A stretch of DNA of 64,000 nt from Thermodesulfobacteriota bacterium (GTDB taxonomy: Bacteria; Desulfobacterota; Desulfobacteria; Desulfobacterales; JAUWMJ01), in the NCBI GenBank assembly GCA_034189135.1, contig JAXHVO010000059.1, forward strand, positions 7,336 through 71,335. Reading direction: 5' to 3'. The position numbers were made by a program, and so were the translations under genes. Below, one piece after another: positions 5,500-49,033 of this stretch. How positions within the stretch are numbered: the stretch's first letter is position 1; each line of letters starts with the position of its first letter. The notes below the pieces were generated by a model, which was not told where the DNA came from, searched no databases, and saw only the letters and a list, made by a program, of their open reading frames with translations.

Positions 5500-6750
5500 A
5501 TGATAGGTTCATTATTTGCAGGAATATCCGGGCTGAATGCAAATGCCACAGCCATGACTGTAATCGGAGACAACATAGCAAATGTAAACACCACCGGTTT
5601 TAAGTCGAACAGGGCGTCGTTTGCCAATGTGTTGAGCACGTCCTTGCAAGGTTCGGGTGGAAGCGATATTGGCAGAGGGGTCGCATTCTGGGGTTCAACC
5701 CCGTCATGGAGCCAGGGATCGGTTGAAAATACAGCCAACGCAACGGACATGGCCATAAACGGGCGTGGTTTTTTTATGGTAAATGACGAAAGCGGCCAAA
5801 CTTTATTTACCAGGGCCGGAGAATTTGCTTTTGACAGGAACGGTGATTTACGAAATCCGGATGGTCTCGCGGTTCAAGGATACGAAGTCACCGCCGTAGC
5901 TCCGGATGGAACATTAACCCTGGGTGCAATCATGAACATTGGTGTTCCCAGCGAGAGTACCTCACCTCCTGTTGCTACGGACGAGTTCACCATGGATATC
6001 AACCTCGATGCTGGCGCTGCAGTGACCGATACCTACTCCACATCACAGGTGTTTTACGATTCTCTGGGCAATGCGGTTCCGGTGACTTTTACATTTACGA
6101 GAGCTGCAGCGGTAGCTCCTGCCACCGCAACCTGGAATGTTGCAGCTGCGATTCCAGCATCAGCAGGAACAGGTGCTGCGGTTAGTGTTCCATCAATCGG
6201 ATTCGATGCAAACGGAAATATGATAGTACCTGCAGCTGATGCGACAGTCACCTTAACTTTAACAAATGGCGCTGCAAGTCCGCAGGCGATAAACTGGATG
6301 CTTTACGATCCAGCCGGTCCAAGCTTAGGTGATATTACAGGATATTCATCTACTTCCGTCACTACATTTCAGACTCAGAACGGATTCCCCGCAGGATCAC
6401 TCAGGGGTGTTTCAGTGGATGAATTGGGTGTGGTCACCGGGGCCTATTCCAACGGGCAGATGACCCCTCTTTACCAGGTTGCCCTGGCAGATTTTCCCAG
6501 TTATTATGGACTAAACAAGATGGGGAACAACCTGTATGCAGAATCGCTTGCATCGGGGCAAGCCCTGCCTGGCGTGGCACAAAGTGGCAGGCTGGGAAGT
6601 ATCAGCCCAAGTGCAGTGGAAATGTCAAATGTTGATCTTGCCCAGGAGTTTGTTAAAATGATTACCACTCAAAGGGCCTTTCAGGCAAATTCCAGGGTCA
6701 TTACCACCAGTGACGAAGTACTCAATGAATTGATTAATATTAAGCGATAA
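5500..6750 (+). CDS. flgE: Flagellar hook protein FlgE
   Basis: N-terminal GISGLNANATAMTVIGDNIANVNTTGFK and C-terminal QRAFQANSRVITTSDEVLNELINIKR. RBS GAGGAGGG. Confidence 0.95.
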   Translation: MIGSLFAGISGLNANATAMTVIGDNIANVNTTGFKSNRASFANVLSTSLQGSGGSDIGRGVAFWGSTPSWSQGSVENTANATDMAINGRGFFMVNDESGQTLFTRAGEFAFDRNGDLRNPDGLAVQGYEVTAVAPDGTLTLGAIMNIGVPSESTSPPVATDEFTMDINLDAGAAVTDTYSTSQVFYDSLGNAVPVTFTFTRAAAVAPATATWNVAAAIPASAGTGAAVSVPSIGFDANGNMIVPAADATVTLTLTNGAASPQAINWMLYDPAGPSLGDITGYSSTSVTTFQTQNGFPAGSLRGVSVDELGVVTGAYSNGQMTPLYQVALADFPSYYGLNKMGNNLYAESLASGQALPGVAQSGRLGSISPSAVEMSNVDLAQEFVKMITTQRAFQANSRVITTSDEVLNELINIKR

Positions 6751-13335: not shown

Positions 13336-15438
13336 ATGGAAGTGGTCAGTCAATCAAGGTTAGCGGCGCAAATTCCAATTATATCGAAAAACAGCGATAT
13401 AATAATTGCGTTTGTTGTCGTTAGTATTCTGGCATTTATGGTGATACCTTTGCCTCCGGTACTGCTCGACTTGCTCCTTTCGTTTAATATTACCTTTTCC
13501 CTGACCATTCTTCTTGTTGGTATGTACATCATAAAGCCCCTTGAATTTTCCGCATTCCCCAGTGTGCTCCTCATTGTCACATTGTTCAGGCTATCGCTCA
13601 ATGTGGCTTCAACCAGAATCATTCTTCTTCATGGGAACGAAGGAACAATGGCTGCCGGAAAGGTGATCAAAGCATTTGGAGGCTTTGTGGTCGGAGGAAA
13701 CTACCTGGTAGGAATTATCGTTTTTTTGATTCTGGTAATCATTAATTTTGTAGTTATAACAAAAGGAGCCGGAAGAATAGCAGAGGTTGCGGCCAGGTTT
13801 ACTTTGGATGGAATGCCGGGCAAACAGATGAGCATCGATGCGGATCTCAACGCCGGTTTAATCAGTGAAGAAGAAGCCAGGAAGAGAAGGGAGCAGATCA
13901 CCCAGGAGGCGGAATATTACGGTGCGATGGACGGAGCCAACAAATTTGTTCGCGGAGATGCCATCGCTGGAATAATTATTACCCTGATAAATATAATTGG
14001 CGGACTGGCAATCGGCGTATTTCAAAATTCAATGAGTTTCGCCCACGCGGCGCAGAATTATACCTTGCTCACCATAGGGGACGGACTGGTGACACAGGTC
14101 CCCGCTCTTATCGTATCGACTGCAGCCGGAGTTATTGTAAGCAGGGCAGGATCAGAAAAAAGTCTGGGAAAAGAAATGACCATGCAGATATTATTTCAGT
14201 ATCGAGCCGTTGCCGTTGCTTCAGCAGTCCTTTTTGGATTTGCGCTTGTCCCGGGACTGCCAGGAATTCCTTTCCTGCTTTTAGCAATGGGAGCAGCAGG
14301 TCTTGCCTTTATGGTGTTCAAGGCGGGTAAGAAAAGCCTTGCAAAAGAAGAAGCCGATAAGATGCTGCAAGAAAAAGCCGGGCCGGAAGAAAAGCCGGTA
14401 TCTCTTCCGCTCCTTGACGTACTTGGTCTCGAAGTCGGCTATGGGATTATTCACCTGGTAGATATGGAACAGGACGGCCAGCTTCTGGATCGAATTAAAT
14501 CTATTAGACGTCAGGTCGCACAGGAAATCGGCATTATTGTTCCACCCATTCATATCCAGGATAACATGCAGTTAAAGCCGGGAGAATATTCAATATTATT
14601 GAAGGGAAATGTAGTCGGAACCGGCGAGCTGATGACCAATTATTGTCTTGCCATGGATCCTGGAACTGTTCAGGGAAAGCTGGACGGGGTACAAACAAAA
14701 GAACCGACTTATGGACTGCCTGCAATCTGGATCAAGGAAAGCAAAAAAGAAGACGCCATAGCCAAAGGGTACACAGTCGTTGATCCAGCTACGGTTTTAA
14801 CTACCCATATCTCTGATGTGGTCAGGCGTTTTTCACATGAGTTGCTGGGGAGACAGGAGGTGCAGCAGATGCTGGACATGCTGAAAAACTCCCATCCAAA
14901 AGTTGTGGAAGAACTGATTCCGAATATGCTCTCACTCGGGGGCGTGGTGAAGGTTCTGCAGAACTTGCTGAAGGAACAGGTGCCTGTTAGAGATTTTCTC
15001 GCTATACTGGAGACGCTGGCTGATTGGGCGCCAATGGTAAAGGATATAGATATGCTGACGGAATATGTGCGGCATTCCCTGGCCAGAACCATTACCAACC
15101 TTCATCAAACCGATAAAGGCAAAATACCGGCGATTACATTGGGACACAGTATAGAAGAGTCCGTATCAGAAGCGATTCAGAGAACTGATCAGGGAAGCTT
15201 TGTTGCCATGGAACCGGATCTTGTACAAAAAATCGTTAATGCCCTTACCGGTTATATGGAAAGAATATCATCATTAAATTATCAACCGGTTATTTTATGT
15301 TCTGCCCAGATCAGGCTGCATTTCAAGAAGCTGATTGATCGTTTTATTTCAAATCTGGCTGTTATTTCATATGACGAACTGTCAAGTAATATTGAAATAG
15401 AGTCCTTGGGAATTGTGGAGTTATCAGATGCAGATTAA
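13336..15438 (+). CDS. flhA: Flagellar export-gate protein FlhA
   Basis: 700 aa with FHIPEP-family motifs such as GGNYLVGIIVFLILVIINFVVITKGAGRIAEVAARFTLDGMPGKQMSIDADL. Confidence 0.97.
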   Translation: MEVVSQSRLAAQIPIISKNSDIIIAFVVVSILAFMVIPLPPVLLDLLLSFNITFSLTILLVGMYIIKPLEFSAFPSVLLIVTLFRLSLNVASTRIILLHGNEGTMAAGKVIKAFGGFVVGGNYLVGIIVFLILVIINFVVITKGAGRIAEVAARFTLDGMPGKQMSIDADLNAGLISEEEARKRREQITQEAEYYGAMDGANKFVRGDAIAGIIITLINIIGGLAIGVFQNSMSFAHAAQNYTLLTIGDGLVTQVPALIVSTAAGVIVSRAGSEKSLGKEMTMQILFQYRAVAVASAVLFGFALVPGLPGIPFLLLAMGAAGLAFMVFKAGKKSLAKEEADKMLQEKAGPEEKPVSLPLLDVLGLEVGYGIIHLVDMEQDGQLLDRIKSIRRQVAQEIGIIVPPIHIQDNMQLKPGEYSILLKGNVVGTGELMTNYCLAMDPGTVQGKLDGVQTKEPTYGLPAIWIKESKKEDAIAKGYTVVDPATVLTTHISDVVRRFSHELLGRQEVQQMLDMLKNSHPKVVEELIPNMLSLGGVVKVLQNLLKEQVPVRDFLAILETLADWAPMVKDIDMLTEYVRHSLARTITNLHQTDKGKIPAITLGHSIEESVSEAIQRTDQGSFVAMEPDLVQKIVNALTGYMERISSLNYQPVILCSAQIRLHFKKLIDRFISNLAVISYDELSSNIEIESLGIVELSDAD

Positions 15439-16780
15439 GAGGTTTGAAGCGAAGAGTATGACAGAGGCCTTAAGGTTGATTAAAAAGGAACTGGGGTCTG
15501 AAGCGGTTATTTTATCGGCACGGAGTCTGAAAAAAGAAAGCCGTTTATTGGGGGCTTTGAAAAAAAGCGGTGTTGAAGTCACCGCAGCGACGGACCATTT
15601 ACCTTACCAACCGAAACAGAAAAGTGCATTGGTCAAAAGAGACTTTTATACGGATAAAAACGATCAGTTCAATTTTAACATGCAGGTGAAAAGGGAGGAT
15701 CAACATATAATATCATCTTTGCGGAGTAAATTAATATCTCAAGATATAAATGAAGATATAGCCGATAGACTGGCAAAAGAACTGAAAGAGATCCTTCCCA
15801 CAAAAAGTATCATGAATGAAATGATGGTGCAAGAGGCGTTGGATTCAATTATCAGCGGTATGGGAGTAAGGTTTGACCCCATAAAAGTTAATTTGGGGAG
15901 TCGCAAGGTCATAGCATTAATCGGACCTTCCGGCGCTGGAAAGACAACCACCGCTGTCAAGCTGGCGACTGCCTGGAAATTTGAAAAGAAAAGAGATGTT
16001 GCCCTGGTTATCATGGATGGTCACAGGATCGGTGCGGTGGATCAAATGAAGACTTATTCAAGAATTATAGGGGTGCCGGTGGCAATTGTTTCCGGTAGAA
16101 ACGAGTTGAGAGAAGCCATAAAAAAATTAAGATATAAGGATCTGGTGATTATAGATACTCCTGGATTGAACTGGCAAAATGACCTGCAGCTTGAAAAGTT
16201 TTATAAATGTTTTGAGAAGATGAAAAAAATTGAAACCCATCTTGTTCTCAGTGCAACCACCAAAGAGAAAGATTATATCAATATTGCAGAAAAATTGAAT
16301 AAGTTTGAAATCAACAGGTTGATATTTACCAAAATCGATGAGAGCAGCACCCACGGAAACATACTCAGCCACTTAATTAGAACGAAAATACCGGTTTCAT
16401 GTTTTACCTGCGGGCAAGAGATTCCTGAAAGTATTGAAGAGGCGTCTATGGATAGATTGCTCGGTTTGATTATAAACAAAGCAAAAGAAAAAAGATATGG
16501 GACCGGGTTTGTTAAAAAAATAGAAACCGTGGACAGTGAAGTGAAAACAGAAAGTGATATAAAAGAATATTTTGTGGCAAACCAAAATTCAGATGTTTTT
16601 CACCGACCCGGCTGCAAATGGACGAGGATGATAAAGCAGGATAATATTGTTGTTTTTAAAAGTGTGGCAGAGGCTGAAGAAAAAAGGTTTAAGCCATGCA
16701 GATATTGCAGGCCTAAACCGGAAGTAGAATATGAGTGCCTGCAATATGGTATGAGCAAAAGAAAAATCGCAAGCGGTTAA
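15428..16780 (+). CDS. flhF: SRP-type GTPase FlhF with an extra C-terminal Ada-like zinc-finger domain
   Basis: Begins MQIKRFEAKSMTEALRLIKKELG (canonical FlhF B-domain start). The ATG at 15428 overlaps the flhA stop. G domain motifs GPSGAGKTTT and DTPG are present. The tail VFHRPGCKW...FKPCRYCRP matches the Ada_Zn_binding pattern. Confidence 0.9.
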   Translation: MQIKRFEAKSMTEALRLIKKELGSEAVILSARSLKKESRLLGALKKSGVEVTAATDHLPYQPKQKSALVKRDFYTDKNDQFNFNMQVKREDQHIISSLRSKLISQDINEDIADRLAKELKEILPTKSIMNEMMVQEALDSIISGMGVRFDPIKVNLGSRKVIALIGPSGAGKTTTAVKLATAWKFEKKRDVALVIMDGHRIGAVDQMKTYSRIIGVPVAIVSGRNELREAIKKLRYKDLVIIDTPGLNWQNDLQLEKFYKCFEKMKKIETHLVLSATTKEKDYINIAEKLNKFEINRLIFTKIDESSTHGNILSHLIRTKIPVSCFTCGQEIPESIEEASMDRLLGLIINKAKEKRYGTGFVKKIETVDSEVKTESDIKEYFVANQNSDVFHRPGCKWTRMIKQDNIVVFKSVAEAEEKRFKPCRYCRPKPEVEYECLQYGMSKRKIASG

Positions 16781-16908: not shown

Positions 16909-17808
16909 ATGGGGCTGAAAGATAATGAAAATAAAGTGATTAGTCTTTCCAAAAGAATAGGAGAGAGCTCGGGAATGAAGAAAAGTACGCATTCAGATAA
17001 AAAATGCAAAAAAGAAACAAGAGTCATTGCCATCACAAGTGGTAAGGGTGGAGTGGGGAAAACAAATATTGTGGCAAATCTTGGACTTGCATTGAGCAAG
17101 CTGGGGAAAAAAGTGATTATTCTGGACGCGGATCTTGGCCTGGGAAATCTGGATGTGTTGCTGGGCCTGGCCCCGAAGTATAACCTGTCCCATGTGATTT
17201 CCGGTGAGAAAAGTATGCGGGAAATCATCCTCAAAGGGCCCGGAGATGTAGAGATACTTCCTGCCTCCTCGGGGATCCAGGAACTTACCCAATTATCTGA
17301 ACAACAGAAGATACAAATCTTAACAAAACTGGATTTATTGATAGATTCCGTTGATGTCTTGTTAATAGACACCGCCGCAGGAATTTCCACCAATGTGCTG
17401 GATTTCAATGCGACTGCTCAGGAAATATTAATCGTTGTATCGCCGGAGCCCACTTCCCTGACTGATGCCTATGCTTTAATGAAAGTGCTTTCTCTGAAAT
17501 ATGCGGAAAAGCATTGTAAATTGGTGGTGAATCAGGCTGCAAGTGATCAGGAGGGCAGAGAGATATACAGGCAGTTGAACATAGTGGCTGAGAGATTTCT
17601 GGATATTTCGGTGGAATATTTCGGATGCATTTTAATGGATGAGAAGGTGACAAAGAGTATAAGACGGCAGAAAATTGTACTCGAATTATATCCGGATAGT
17701 CCGGCGAGCAGATGTTTTGGGATGTTAGCGAAAAAAGTAAAAAATATGAAGAGCTTAAAATCAACAAAAGGAGATTCCAATTTATTCTGGAAGCATCTTG
17801 CCTCTTAG
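16909..17808 (+). CDS. flhG: MinD/ParA-type ATPase FlhG (FleN)
   Basis: Deviant Walker A ITSGKGGVGKT, followed by ILDADLGLGNLDVLLG. Lies downstream of flhF. The start is uncertain (alternative ATG at 16975). Confidence 0.88.
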   Translation: MGLKDNENKVISLSKRIGESSGMKKSTHSDKKCKKETRVIAITSGKGGVGKTNIVANLGLALSKLGKKVIILDADLGLGNLDVLLGLAPKYNLSHVISGEKSMREIILKGPGDVEILPASSGIQELTQLSEQQKIQILTKLDLLIDSVDVLLIDTAAGISTNVLDFNATAQEILIVVSPEPTSLTDAYALMKVLSLKYAEKHCKLVVNQAASDQEGREIYRQLNIVAERFLDISVEYFGCILMDEKVTKSIRRQKIVLELYPDSPASRCFGMLAKKVKNMKSLKSTKGDSNLFWKHLAS

Positions 17809-17991: not shown

Positions 17992-18750
17992 ATGCAACTG
18001 GCGGAAGAACAAAAAACTGGTTTTAATAAGTGCAATCGTTTAAACAGGGAGCAGACAATTATGCGGTATCTGCCTCATGTAAAACGTATCGTTCAAAGAA
18101 TAGCGGTCCATCTTCCTCAAAGCGTAGAAATCGAAGATCTATTAAATGTCGGGGTTATTGGATTAATACAGGCCATAGAGAGGTATAATCCGGACCGGGA
18201 TAATAAATTTATGACCTATGCGGCATTCAGGATCAGAGGTGCTGTATTAAGTGAGCTTAGGTCAAGAGACTATATCTCAAGAACAAACAGGAGAAAAGTA
18301 AGAGAGCTGGAAAAAACTTATTTAAAGCTCGAACAAAAAAAAGGCGAAGAGGTTGAAGATCATGAAGTGGTAAAAGAAATGGGGATTGGTTTTGAGGAGT
18401 TTCACAAAATTAAACAAATGTCGACTATTTCCATCATAAGTCTTGATGAGATGGGATACTCCTCTGATAAGAAAAGAGATTCCCTGTCGGAAATGTTTAT
18501 TAATAACAGGGAGGAAGATGCCCTGAATCAGACAGGAATTAAAGAGATAAAAGCAGCCATTGCCAAAACAATCGATGAATTACCGCAAAAGGAAAAACTG
18601 GTCATTTCTTTATACTACATGGATGAACTTACCATGAAGGAAACGGGAAAGGTATTAGGTATAACAGAGTCAAGGGTTTCTCAGCTGCATTCAAAAGCCA
18701 TTACCCGCTTAAGGGCAAAACTCAGAAGGAAAAAGCTGGTTGAAGAATAG
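17992..18750 (+). CDS. fliA: Flagellar sigma factor FliA (sigma28)
   Basis: 252 aa. Sigma70 region 2 reads FMTYAAFRIRGAVLSELR and region 4 HTH reads MKETGKVLGITESRVSQLHSKAITRLR. Lies in flhF-flhG-fliA order. Confidence 0.92.
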   Translation: MQLAEEQKTGFNKCNRLNREQTIMRYLPHVKRIVQRIAVHLPQSVEIEDLLNVGVIGLIQAIERYNPDRDNKFMTYAAFRIRGAVLSELRSRDYISRTNRRKVRELEKTYLKLEQKKGEEVEDHEVVKEMGIGFEEFHKIKQMSTISIISLDEMGYSSDKKRDSLSEMFINNREEDALNQTGIKEIKAAIAKTIDELPQKEKLVISLYYMDELTMKETGKVLGITESRVSQLHSKAITRLRAKLRRKKLVEE

Positions 18751-18889: not shown

Positions 18890-19165
18890 ATGGTTGAAAA
18901 TCTAAATATTCAAAAAGTATTGGCACCCATATCGTTAACATCCAGGGTAAAAAAGGCCAGCAGGGAAAAGAATAAAAACCGGCAAAAAACCTTTGATGAG
19001 GAATTAAAGAAAAAAAAAGAACATAAGGAAGGGCGGTCTGTTGCTCAATCAAAGACAGATAAAGAAACAAGTATAAGGAAAGAAGAATCTCTAACAGAAA
19101 ACCAGAATGAAAATAGTGAAAGTGTAGAAAGCAAACAGGGTAAGCGGATAGATATTCATATTTAG
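18890..19165 (+). CDS. Hypothetical Lys/Glu-rich small protein
   Basis: 91-aa highly charged ORF co-directional with the operon, ending 19 nt before the strong RBS of the next ORF. It has a weak RBS and no recognisable domain. The hydrophobic antisense ORF 18888-19169 is likely a mirror artefact. Confidence 0.35.
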   Translation: MVENLNIQKVLAPISLTSRVKKASREKNKNRQKTFDEELKKKKEHKEGRSVAQSKTDKETSIRKEESLTENQNENSESVESKQGKRIDIHI

Positions 19166-19184: not shown

Positions 19185-19691
19185 ATGGGATTTAATGCAA
19201 CGCATGTATTTGAGACGAGTCTGGATGTGGTAGGGATTACACTTAGCTGTGTGATTATTTCCTATCTTATTTATAACAGAATAAAATACAATCAGCTGGT
19301 ATTAAGCAGAAAATATAATAAAAGTATGAGCACGTTTAAATCTGAAGTTGCGGTTAAGATGATTAAGCAACAAACAGAAAGAAGCTTTGATACCATTTGC
19401 GATATTATAAATAAGGAACAACGGAAATTCAAAAGACTGATGGAAAAGGAAGAACTTGAAAACGCAAAATATCTGATGATGATGATGGAGAAAGGCCACC
19501 TCCTTAAAAAAGTAATCAATGTAAAAGCCATGGATGAAGTGCAGCCGGGTATTACTGCAGATCCCTATGACGAAATATCCAAGATGGCCGGTTCCGGTAT
19601 GGGTGTGGAAAAAATATCCAAAAAAGTGGGGATGCCGCCAGGAGAAGTTGAACTGTATTTAAAGCTCAATAAAAATTATACTTTTAATTAG
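19185..19691 (+). CDS. Hypothetical membrane-anchored protein with a C-terminal HTH-like tail
   Basis: RBS AAGGAG 8 nt upstream and an N-terminal TM helix (VVGITLSCVIISYLIY). The C-terminus GMGVEKISKKVGMPPGEVELYLKLNK resembles tails of DUF2802-type flagellar-cluster proteins; this comparison is from memory and is not verified. Confidence 0.55.
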   Translation: MGFNATHVFETSLDVVGITLSCVIISYLIYNRIKYNQLVLSRKYNKSMSTFKSEVAVKMIKQQTERSFDTICDIINKEQRKFKRLMEKEELENAKYLMMMMEKGHLLKKVINVKAMDEVQPGITADPYDEISKMAGSGMGVEKISKKVGMPPGEVELYLKLNKNYTFN

Positions 19692-47800: not shown

Positions 47801-49033
47801 TCAGGCAGAGAAATTGCTTATTTTTCTAATCAAATCATTGGGAAAATATTCGTTATTCAACAAGACAGTGACCCTGCTTCCGGGCTGGGCAAAAGGCAAT
47901 GATTGTCCGTTGATATCGATGATATCTATTATTTTGTCCTTAACCACCGGTCCTTTTCTCCCCAGGACTTCGACATCGGTGCCTTTAAACATTTTATTTC
48001 TAACCTCGATATATGCCAGAGACCGGCCTGCTTTTTTAATCACTTTACCAATAAACAGGTGGCTGTCTAAAGGTTTGTTTTTTTCATAATTTGGCAATAT
48101 CTGATCGGGGTCTCCCAAATAAAAACCGGTGCAATAGCCACGGTTGTTTATTGAGGCAAGTTCATCCATCCATCTCGGTTTGGTTTCATAATCTTCAGGT
48201 GATGCATAATAGCTGTCAATGGCTTCCCGGTAAACTTTTACAGTTGATGCAAGATAGTTGATTGATTTCATTCGGCCTTCTATCTTAAATGAATCTATGC
48301 CTGATTCGATAATTTGCGGGATGTGTTCAATCATGCATAAATCGCTTGAATTAAAGATATAACTGCCACGGTCATCTTCAGCCAGGGGGTAGTATTTGTC
48401 GGGTCTTAATTCTTCCACCACGGCATATTTCCACCTGCATGGGTGCGTGCACAACCCGCGGTTGCTGTCCCGATTTGTCATAAAACTGCTGAGAAGACAT
48501 CGGCCTGAATAAGAGATGCACATGGCCCCGTGAACAAAAGCCTCTATTTCCAGCGAGCTTTGCGAGGCAATCTCATTTATCTCCTTTAAAGAAAGCTCCC
48601 GTGCTACATTTACTCTTTTGACGCCCAGTTTTTCCCAGAACACTGCACTTTTATAACTGGTGGTGTTGGCCTGGGTGCTGAGATGTATGGGAATTTCAGG
48701 TATAACGTTGCCGGCCTCCATGAATACTCCGGGATCGGAGATGATGACCGCATCGGCACCAATTTCGCCGATATATGTCAGAAAATCGATGACCGCTTCT
48801 TGCTCAAAATTCCTCGGATATATATTGCAAGCCACATAAACTCTGACACCCGCTTTATGGGCATCTCTTACCGCACTTTGAAGCTCATCGTGGCTGAAAT
48901 TTCCTGAAAAATTTCTCAAACTGAACTCCTTGCCGGCAAGATAAACCGCATCCGCACCATAATGTATGGCGATTTCTAATTTTTCCGGGTTGCCCGCAGG
49001 TGATAGAAGCTCTACTTTTTTAGTCATAGACAT
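47801..49033 (-). CDS. Peptidase U32 family protein
   Basis: N-terminal VELLSPAGNPEKLEIAIHYGADAVYLAG and EAFVHGAMCISYSGRCLLS are typical of the U32 family. Confidence 0.85.
   Translation of the reverse strand: MSMTKKVELLSPAGNPEKLEIAIHYGADAVYLAGKEFSLRNFSGNFSHDELQSAVRDAHKAGVRVYVACNIYPRNFEQEAVIDFLTYIGEIGADAVIISDPGVFMEAGNVIPEIPIHLSTQANTTSYKSAVFWEKLGVKRVNVARELSLKEINEIASQSSLEIEAFVHGAMCISYSGRCLLSSFMTNRDSNRGLCTHPCRWKYAVVEELRPDKYYPLAEDDRGSYIFNSSDLCMIEHIPQIIESGIDSFKIEGRMKSINYLASTVKVYREAIDSYYASPEDYETKPRWMDELASINNRGYCTGFYLGDPDQILPNYEKNKPLDSHLFIGKVIKKAGRSLAYIEVRNKMFKGTDVEVLGRKGPVVKDKIIDIIDINGQSLPFAQPGSRVTVLLNNEYFPNDLIRKISNFSA

Follow-up and report, generated by a model that had tools for sequence, protein, structure and literature searches.

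We describe a form of the flagellar GTPase FlhF that carries a small Ada-like domain at its C-terminus. It is encoded in a stretch of 64,000 nucleotides from a Thermodesulfobacteriota bacterium of the order Desulfobacterales (GenBank assembly GCA_034189135.1, contig JAXHVO010000059.1, positions 7,336 to 71,335 of the forward strand). We call this whole stretch the window, and all coordinates below count from its first letter unless another locus is named. The domain was first noticed by a model that saw only the letters and the open reading frames (ORFs), an account we refer to as the sequence-only reading. Here we establish what the gene and its tail are, how widely the combination is shared, and what the tail may do for the placement of flagella.

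The flhF gene and its product

The flhF coding sequence runs from 15428 to 16780 on the forward strand (450 residues plus stop), within an ORF of 15413-16780. We take the ATG at 15428 as the true start because all homologues begin with MQIKRFEA in alignments of relatives. From this start flhF and the end of flhA share 11 nucleotides (15428-15438), and the overlap suggests that the two genes are translationally coupled. It is also found at locus L019, where flhA ends at 6011 and flhF starts at 6001.

The protein is FlhF, as the sequence-only reading had proposed. It matches the NCBIfam model TIGR03499 (FlhF) with 187.6 bits, above the equivalog cutoff of 174.15, and Pfam finds PF00448 (SRP54) over residues 160-348 (E=4.9e-36). 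A full-length AlphaFold2 model, made from an alignment of 73 sequences, has a mean predicted local distance difference test score (pLDDT) of 77 and a predicted template modelling score (pTM) of 0.58; its top PDB matches in a Foldseek search are the FlhF structures of B. subtilis (2PX0) and S. putrefaciens (8R9R), both with a template modelling score of 0.85. The gene context agrees with this identification. The GTPase motifs GPSGAGKTT (166), DGHR (197), DTPG (243) and TKID (301) are intact, and the body of the protein is otherwise canonical and apparently competent for catalysis.

From its N-terminus the protein begins with the structured part of the B domain (residues 1-56, 15428-15595), predicted as beta-alpha-beta-beta with a pLDDT of about 90. 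In position this part corresponds to the FliG-interaction domain described for gamma-proteobacterial FlhF (PMC12826062). A disordered B-domain linker follows (residues 57-90, 15596-15697, pLDDT below 50), and then the NG domain, the GTPase of the signal recognition particle (SRP) type, which is supported by PF00448, the intact motifs and the structural match (residues 91-349, 15698-16474). A second, flexible linker of variable length connects the G domain to the zinc module (residues 350-379, 16475-16564, pLDDT below 50 over 352-379). The linker of about 30 residues described from the letters alone was thereby confirmed, as the SRP54 match ends at residue 348 and the folded tail starts near residue 380. 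The ADA_N-like zinc module itself occupies residues 380-429 (16565-16714, pLDDT 82-91), and a disordered peptide closes the protein (residues 430-450, 16715-16777, pLDDT below 50). All of these features lie on the forward strand.

Canonical FlhF proteins, such as those of B. subtilis (2PX0, 2PX3), S. putrefaciens (8R9R), Vibrio and Pseudomonas, share the B-N-G body, the motifs and the structured N-terminus with the protein of the window. However, canonical FlhF ends at the G domain (PMC12826062), whereas here about 100 residues follow, made up of the linker, the zinc module and a basic peptide. The last seven residues of this variable peptide (444-450, 16757-16777, forward strand) form a semi-conserved basic motif, (K/R)(K/R)(K/R)-hydrophobic-(S/A)-S-(Y/G), whose form is KRKIASG in the window and, in many relatives, KIKLSSYR. 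Possibly a partner, the membrane or a protease recognises it as a short linear motif.

An Ada-like module at the C-terminus of FlhF

The peptide in which the sequence-only reading recognised an Ada-type domain is encoded exactly where that reading had placed it, at 16592-16714 on the forward strand (D389-P429 of FlhF). The Pfam model PF02805 (Ada_Zn_binding) matches residues 380-429 of the whole protein with 39.1 bits (E=7.7e-10), well above the gathering cutoff of 23, and matches the tail alone with 42.8 bits. A profile search with PF02805 and PF00448 had been suggested as a check on the Ada assignment, and both families gave significant matches. The PF02805 match spans profile positions 16-64 of 65 and leaves positions 1-15 unmatched.

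A phmmer search of all PDB sequences returned Ada N-terminal chains only (1ADN, 1WPK, 1U8B and 1ZGW, with E values of about 3e-4). In the resulting alignment H392 stands opposite Cys38 of Ada, and C396, C424 and C427 stand opposite Cys42, Cys69 and Cys72, which bears out the ligand set of one histidine and three cysteines anticipated from the letters. The predicted ligand codons lie at 16601-16603 (H392), 16613-16615 (C396), 16697-16699 (C424) and 16706-16708 (C427) on the forward strand. An AlphaFold2 model of the tail alone has a pLDDT of about 84-91 over its residues 1-50, arranged as beta-beta-alpha-beta-alpha. Foldseek aligns this model with the N-domain of Ada in its DNA complexes (1U8B and 1ZGW) at 1.8-1.9 Å over 51 columns with 29% identity, and gives probabilities of 0.99-1.0 to Ada N-domains alone; no other PDB fold reached a meaningful probability in this search.

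With a score above the Pfam threshold, the Ada fold and all four ligand positions, the tail of FlhF is a member of the Ada_Zn_binding family. We infer that H392, C396, C424 and C427 together hold one structural Zn(II). Since the linkers have pLDDT values below 50 while the module has values of 82-91, the models present the tail as an independently folding module on a flexible tether. A second pattern match in the window, at 48437-48535 on the reverse strand, has none of the flanking consensus of the module and looks like a chance match.

Functional Ada binds its zinc through C38, C42, C69 and C72, and Cys38 is also the nucleophile that takes the methyl group from a methylphosphotriester (PMC10814553). 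The N-domain of E. coli Ada (PF02805; 1ADN, 1EYF, 1U8B and 1ZGW) has the same fold and the same four ligand positions as the FlhF tail, and the two have the motifs F-x-RP-x-C and F-(R/K)-P-C-x-x-C-x-P in common. They differ in that the methyl-accepting Cys38 is a histidine in FlhF, that the first helix of Ada is missing, and that the Ada domain is N-terminal while the FlhF module sits at the C-terminus of a GTPase. No AraC-type helix-turn-helix (HTH) domain and no O6-methylguanine methyltransferase (MGMT) was matched in FlhF by Pfam or NCBIfam, and only 21 disordered residues come after the module. The Ada-type claim therefore holds for family and fold and needs qualification beyond these, as the tail is a shortened histidine variant without the first helix, the HTH domain or Cys38. 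Judged by its sequence, which lacks both Cys38 and a following HTH or methyltransferase domain, it is not a functional Ada. Because Cys38 is replaced by histidine in the whole subclass, the tail is probably neither a methyl acceptor nor an alkylation sensor, and methyl transfer of the Ada type is unlikely.

Conservation of the fusion

A search with the whole protein found 1199 relatives, and the alignment and column counts given here use the best 120. Most of these are annotated with PF02805 and PF00448 together and are 36-92% identical to the FlhF of the window, the closest (P0001) at 92%. The predicted ligands are retained almost without exception (H392 in 119/120, C396 in 120/120, C424 in 119/120 and C427 in 120/120), and A384, N385, S388, W398, I402, K403, F410, A416, P423 and P429 are near-invariant as well. 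Mean pairwise identity is 0.71 in the N-terminal domain, 0.12 in the B linker, 0.33 in the N domain, 0.50 in the G domain, 0.10 in the second linker, 0.54 in the tail and 0.18 in the C-terminal peptide. At 0.54 against 0.50 the tail is more constrained than the GTPase domain, which shows that the zinc module is under the stronger purifying selection. Both of its flanks, predicted to be disordered over 352-379 and 430-450, drift freely.

Of the 184 FlhF-like sequences gathered here, 181 carry the tail, and the other three have a truncated or degenerate C-terminus. Among tail carriers, identity to the NG domain of the window goes as low as about 27%. We also scanned GTDB species representatives from an alignment of seven tails with the single narrow pattern [YR]FVAN[KQR]NSD; the 16 loci found in this way undercount the true distribution and are no measure of its absence from cultured species. 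None of them exceeds 57% identity to the tail of the window, whose species therefore does not appear to be among these representatives. In 15 of the 16, flhF is one intact ORF of 473-497 residues leading from MQIKRF into the tail. A metagenome contig of 5.18 Mb assembled from long reads likewise has flhF as a single intact ORF, in identical synteny. In base composition the tail (39.3% guanine plus cytosine) is close to the body of FlhF (39.7%; window 42%), so this comparison of tail and body gives no trace of a recent acquisition.

The sequence-only reading had itself raised the concern that the tail could stem from a misassembled or frameshifted fusion with a separate small ORF. Databases do hold some ORF calls of 71-125 residues that consist of the tail only, as would be expected if a small gene had been joined to flhF by frameshift, misassembly or read-through. 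One such call (P0127) starts 145 bp from the end of its contig and is a truncated flhF, the other short calls apart. The collinear single ORF in about 180 independent sequences, in 15 of 16 GTDB loci and on the long-read contig, together with the strong purifying selection on the tail, leaves an artefact with a negligible probability; misassembly and frameshift were rejected on the strength of the carriers, the intact ORFs and the long-read contig. A separate oddity is P0134, a protein of 125 residues on a contig of 1453 bp, in which the C-terminus of FlhA is joined straight to an FlhF tail (82% identical to that of the window) with the FlhF body missing. This may be a natural deletion or an assembly chimera.

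The fusion is thus not peculiar to the window but is a conserved lineage trait of FlhF of the Desulfobacterales type, in bacteria of the sulfate-reducer kind. All named carriers are metagenome-assembled genomes (MAGs), labelled Desulfobacterales, Desulfosarcinaceae, Desulfobacteraceae, Desulfosarcina sp., Thermodesulfobacteriota or 'Deltaproteobacteria'; further carriers are the Olavius Delta 1 symbiont and one bin labelled Ignavibacteria. In the last of these (locus L015, CAVQMC010000002.1, 'uncultured Ignavibacteria bacterium') an FlhF of 481 residues and its tail closely resemble the Olavius Delta 1 locus (L011). From this likeness, the taxonomic label is probably wrong or the contig mis-binned.

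A wider class of Ada-like modules

A word-indexed profile search with the tail gave short fragments only, and the wider family became visible by an exhaustive phmmer search. With the 73-residue tail as query against 1.84 billion representative proteins, this search found 1346 clusters at E<=1e-3. Besides C-terminal matches in proteins of FlhF length, many unrelated proteins hold 2-7 tandem copies of the module. Some of these have N-termini resembling signal peptides (e.g. P0150, P0167 and P0171), P0152 is a fusion of a staphylococcal nuclease with four copies, and P0170 is a kinase-like membrane protein. By a crude heuristic, about 41 of 73 carriers other than FlhF have an N-terminal hydrophobic stretch. 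The module also exists alone, in proteins of 66-75 residues (P0142 and P0144). The first of these (locus L018, 4001-4228) has an N-terminus resembling a signal peptide and adjoins a gene with Exo_endo_phos and LTD domains. In P0151 a variant of the module has H-x-C in place of C-x2-C.

The closest relatives outside FlhF share the ligand pattern H-x3-C...C-x2-C, and the first ligand is histidine in all 172 module copies from 73 unrelated proteins. Eight of the ten non-FlhF proteins tested match NF051437, a model of 42 residues that NCBIfam names 'sunset', and five of them score above its cutoff (P0152 with 134.7 bits and P0171 with 41.6 bits, for example). The FlhF tail scores 15.1 bits against this model, under the 27-bit cutoff. 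NCBIfam also has exception models for 'sunset domain variants' of the ribosomal proteins L17, L20, L4 and S2 and of ArfC. The tail fits the description of a short C-terminal module with H-x3-C...C-x2-C, a pattern that was read from the matches and is not the curators' definition. A literature search for 'sunset domain' found nothing relevant. However, Pei et al. (2025, PMC12353581) describe an ECOD group of 'ADA_N-like domains' that lie mostly at C-terminal ends, in carriers such as RplD, Cwp27, ArfC, ComEC and LGFP proteins, and whose functions they describe as still to be established. The zinc site of such domains may be conserved or decayed, and the examples in that paper do not include FlhF.

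On these patterns of sequence, the FlhF tail belongs to the ADA_N-like class and lies near the 'sunset' class, rather than with functional Ada. What is common to the class is a short, mostly C-terminal Ada-like module on unrelated hosts. The net charge of the module is about +3 to +5. The zinc site of the FlhF tail is fully conserved, and the tail stands apart within the class as a single, cytoplasmic copy. It has its own invariant positions, since A384, N385, N387, D389, K397 and K403 distinguish it from generic copies, and FlhF tails are without the glycine that is typical of the class at position 420.

Flagellar gene neighbourhood

The flhF gene lies in a canonical polar-flagellum cluster, in the order fliP, fliR, flhB, flhA, flhF, flhG, fliA, a FipA-like ORF, flgF, flgG, flgA and flgH. 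The gene order is the same in L019, the flhA-flhF-flhG-fliA context is shared with canonical FlhF, and the whole clade retains the synteny with flhG and the DUF2802 gene. Upstream, flhA (13336-15438) is an ORF of 700 residues whose equivalent in L019 matches PF00771 (FHIPEP). Downstream come flhG (16909-17808), a MinD/ParA-type ATPase with the Pfam matches ParA, CbiA and AAA_31, and a fliA-type sigma factor (17992-18750; Sigma70_r2 and Sigma70_r4), all on the forward strand. In the FlhG proteins of the clade (L001-L016 and the window) the literal DQAxxLR motif of the FlhF activator is replaced by a conserved N-terminal segment, (K/N)DPSNKVIxL..R, which may be its functional equivalent or a changed regulatory interface.

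Two ORFs downstream of fliA, on the forward strand at 19185-19691, lies the FipA-like ORF. It encodes 168 residues with an N-terminal hydrophobic segment and matches PF10975 (DUF2802) with 27 bits, under the cutoff of 33.5. Its counterparts are found at 9512-10015 in L019 and at 2869-3361 in L017, and the syntenic ORF of L019 has an unmarked DUF2802 match on record. FipA homologues are widespread among gamma-proteobacteria (PMC11620751), and a FipA-like gene in flagellar clusters of the Desulfobacterales may extend the range of the family. Between fliA and this gene there is a small ORF of 91 residues very rich in lysine and glutamate (18890-19165, forward strand). Unannotated ORFs of similar size stand at the same position in L019 (85 residues) and L017 (98 residues), with no family match on record for either.

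Discussion

The FlhF of this lineage starts with a structured N-terminal domain, which a disordered linker joins to the NG GTPase; a second disordered linker, about 30 residues long, leads to an ADA_N-like module of 50 residues, and a short disordered basic peptide comes last. We propose that the module is a tethered, zinc-stabilised and non-catalytic docking module that gives FlhF one more attachment point, and that this point would influence where and when FlhF accumulates. The idea of an extra docking point builds on the view of FlhF as a molecular tether, with its N-terminal FliG-interaction domain on FliG, its NG domain on a polar landmark and the linker between them (PMC12826062). As for the ligand, the zinc-proximal face may bind a phosphate-rich polyanion, most likely the backbone of a nucleic acid and failing that the head groups of anionic phospholipids. 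FlhF would thereby gain a link to the nucleoid, RNA or the membrane. The sequence-only reading had offered DNA, membrane or partner binding and redox or metal sensing as candidate roles, and each of these keeps some probability here. We regard a tethered docking module for such a polyanion as the best explanation, with a probability of roughly 0.4.

The choice of a polyanion, which we make by analogy and with modest confidence, draws on several observations. The only characterised relative, Ada, docks on the DNA backbone (1U8B and 1ZGW). Sister copies are found on or next to nucleases (P0152 and the L018 locus), on ComEC and on the ribosomal proteins L4, L17, L20 and S2, and the module is basic. 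The FlhF-specific invariant residues also flank the metal ligands at positions that align with Ada: N387-S388-D389, K397-W398, K403 and R425 correspond to T33-G35, R43-A44 and K70. The alignment suggests that FlhF may use the same face that Ada uses for DNA. A nucleic-acid connection would not be unprecedented for FlhF in view of the C. jejuni protein, which is not known to have such a tail; this is only a lead. There, FlhF reportedly binds flagellar promoters (PMC7105676).

Some of our results pull the other way. Generic copies are about as basic as the FlhF tails (net charge +3.1 against +2.9, p=0.24), therefore charge does not discriminate between hypotheses about the ligand. The hydrophobic N-termini of many non-FlhF carriers, several of which clearly resemble signal peptides, show that the class is not restricted to nucleic-acid contexts. 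Beside the metal site stands an invariant acidic residue, D389, and a specific protein interface would explain the very high conservation that is particular to FlhF no less well than non-specific backbone binding would.

A protein partner is in fact almost as likely as a polyanion, though each taken by itself must be called tentative. The module would then be a pure protein-protein interaction zinc finger that docks a specific flagellar or polar protein, and candidates are FlhG, the FipA-like DUF2802 protein, FliF or FliG, or a lineage-specific landmark that replaces HubP/FimV. Such a partner would suit the positions that set FlhF tails apart from generic copies (A384, N385, N387, D389, K397, K403 and the loss of G420), a tail that surpasses the G domain in conservation, and the fully conserved synteny with flhG and the DUF2802 gene; the work of FlhF is also known to depend on several contacts with other proteins (PMC12826062; PMC11620751). 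However, the evidence singles out no particular candidate, and the presence of the module class on unrelated proteins argues for a generic ligand, unless the FlhF copies have become specialised. It is less probable that the tail folds back on the NG domain or the NG homodimer and modulates GTP-dependent dimerisation or FlhG-stimulated hydrolysis, with zinc occupancy or thiol oxidation as a possible switch by which a strict anaerobe would sense redox state or metal. Zinc-thiolate sites can serve as redox switches, and a Cys3His site is chemically oxidisable. The linker is long enough for the module to reach the NG domain, and regulation may differ in this clade, where the N-terminus of FlhG has diverged (KDPSNKVIxL in place of DQAxxLR). 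The full-length model, however, shows no confident link between tail and NG domain, with connecting segments below a pLDDT of 50 and a pTM of 0.58, and many copies of the module stand in extracytoplasmic tandem arrays, in which a switch of this kind would have little purpose. We rate this regulator as improbable. Least credible of the functional proposals is that the tail accepts methyl groups from methylphosphotriesters or senses alkylation, and so couples DNA damage to flagellar assembly. It has in its favour the homology to N-Ada in sequence and fold, and a generic speculation in PMC12353581 that ADA_N-like domains could sense alkylated DNA. But Cys38 has become histidine in 119 of 120 FlhF tails and in 172 of 172 sister copies, the His-Cys3 site is less negative than Cys4, which should lower the nucleophilicity of the thiolates, and both the first helix and the HTH partner domain of Ada are missing.

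To return to the docking module that we favour, a parallel can be drawn with Ffh/SRP54. The M domain of Ffh is methionine-rich and helical, and its ligands are RNA and signal peptides. Ffh and the FlhF of this lineage have in common an NG domain of the SRP family, with structurally similar cores, and a flexibly linked C-terminal binding domain. The fold of the M domain is unrelated to that of the ADA_N-like module, so the analogy is one of architecture only. It is a long shot, a little below the fold-back regulator in our estimation, that FlhF here is a nucleic-acid-binding SRP-type GTPase with the zinc module in a role like that of the M domain, or that a strict anaerobe uses the Cys3His site as a redox or zinc switch to tune its flagellation to oxidative or metal stress. 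If the nucleic-acid reading is true, FlhF would be tied to RNA, mRNA, ribosomes or the chromosome, and early flagellar components would be made, or their genes transcribed, in physical connection with the site of assembly.

The significance of the fusion is limited in some respects. Both parts are known domain types, the module class is already catalogued as a promiscuous C-terminal add-on, and the named carriers seen here are all uncultured MAGs. The combination has also been flagged automatically, as public protein sets annotate carriers with PF02805 and PF00448 or as 'Ada metal-binding domain-containing protein'. On the other hand, full-text searches for FlhF with Ada and zinc, and for a C-terminal extension of FlhF, found no paper that describes an Ada-like zinc tail on this protein, in line with the expectation of the sequence-only reading, and a 2025 review of FlhF and FlhG gives the B-N-G architecture only (PMC12826062).

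We therefore see the fusion as no categorical surprise but as a lead, both for flagellar placement outside the gamma-proteobacteria and for the function of ADA_N-like modules. For the latter, FlhF offers a cytoplasmic, single-copy and functionally interpretable host of an ADA_N-like or 'sunset' module. For the former, the way in which FlhF finds the pole and stays there is understood in only a few gamma-proteobacteria, where contacts with HubP/FimV, FipA and FliG have been mapped. An extra module that is strongly conserved and long kept points to an additional contact in flagellar placement, of a kind that has not been described for FlhF, and its 50 residues provide a defined handle for finding that contact.

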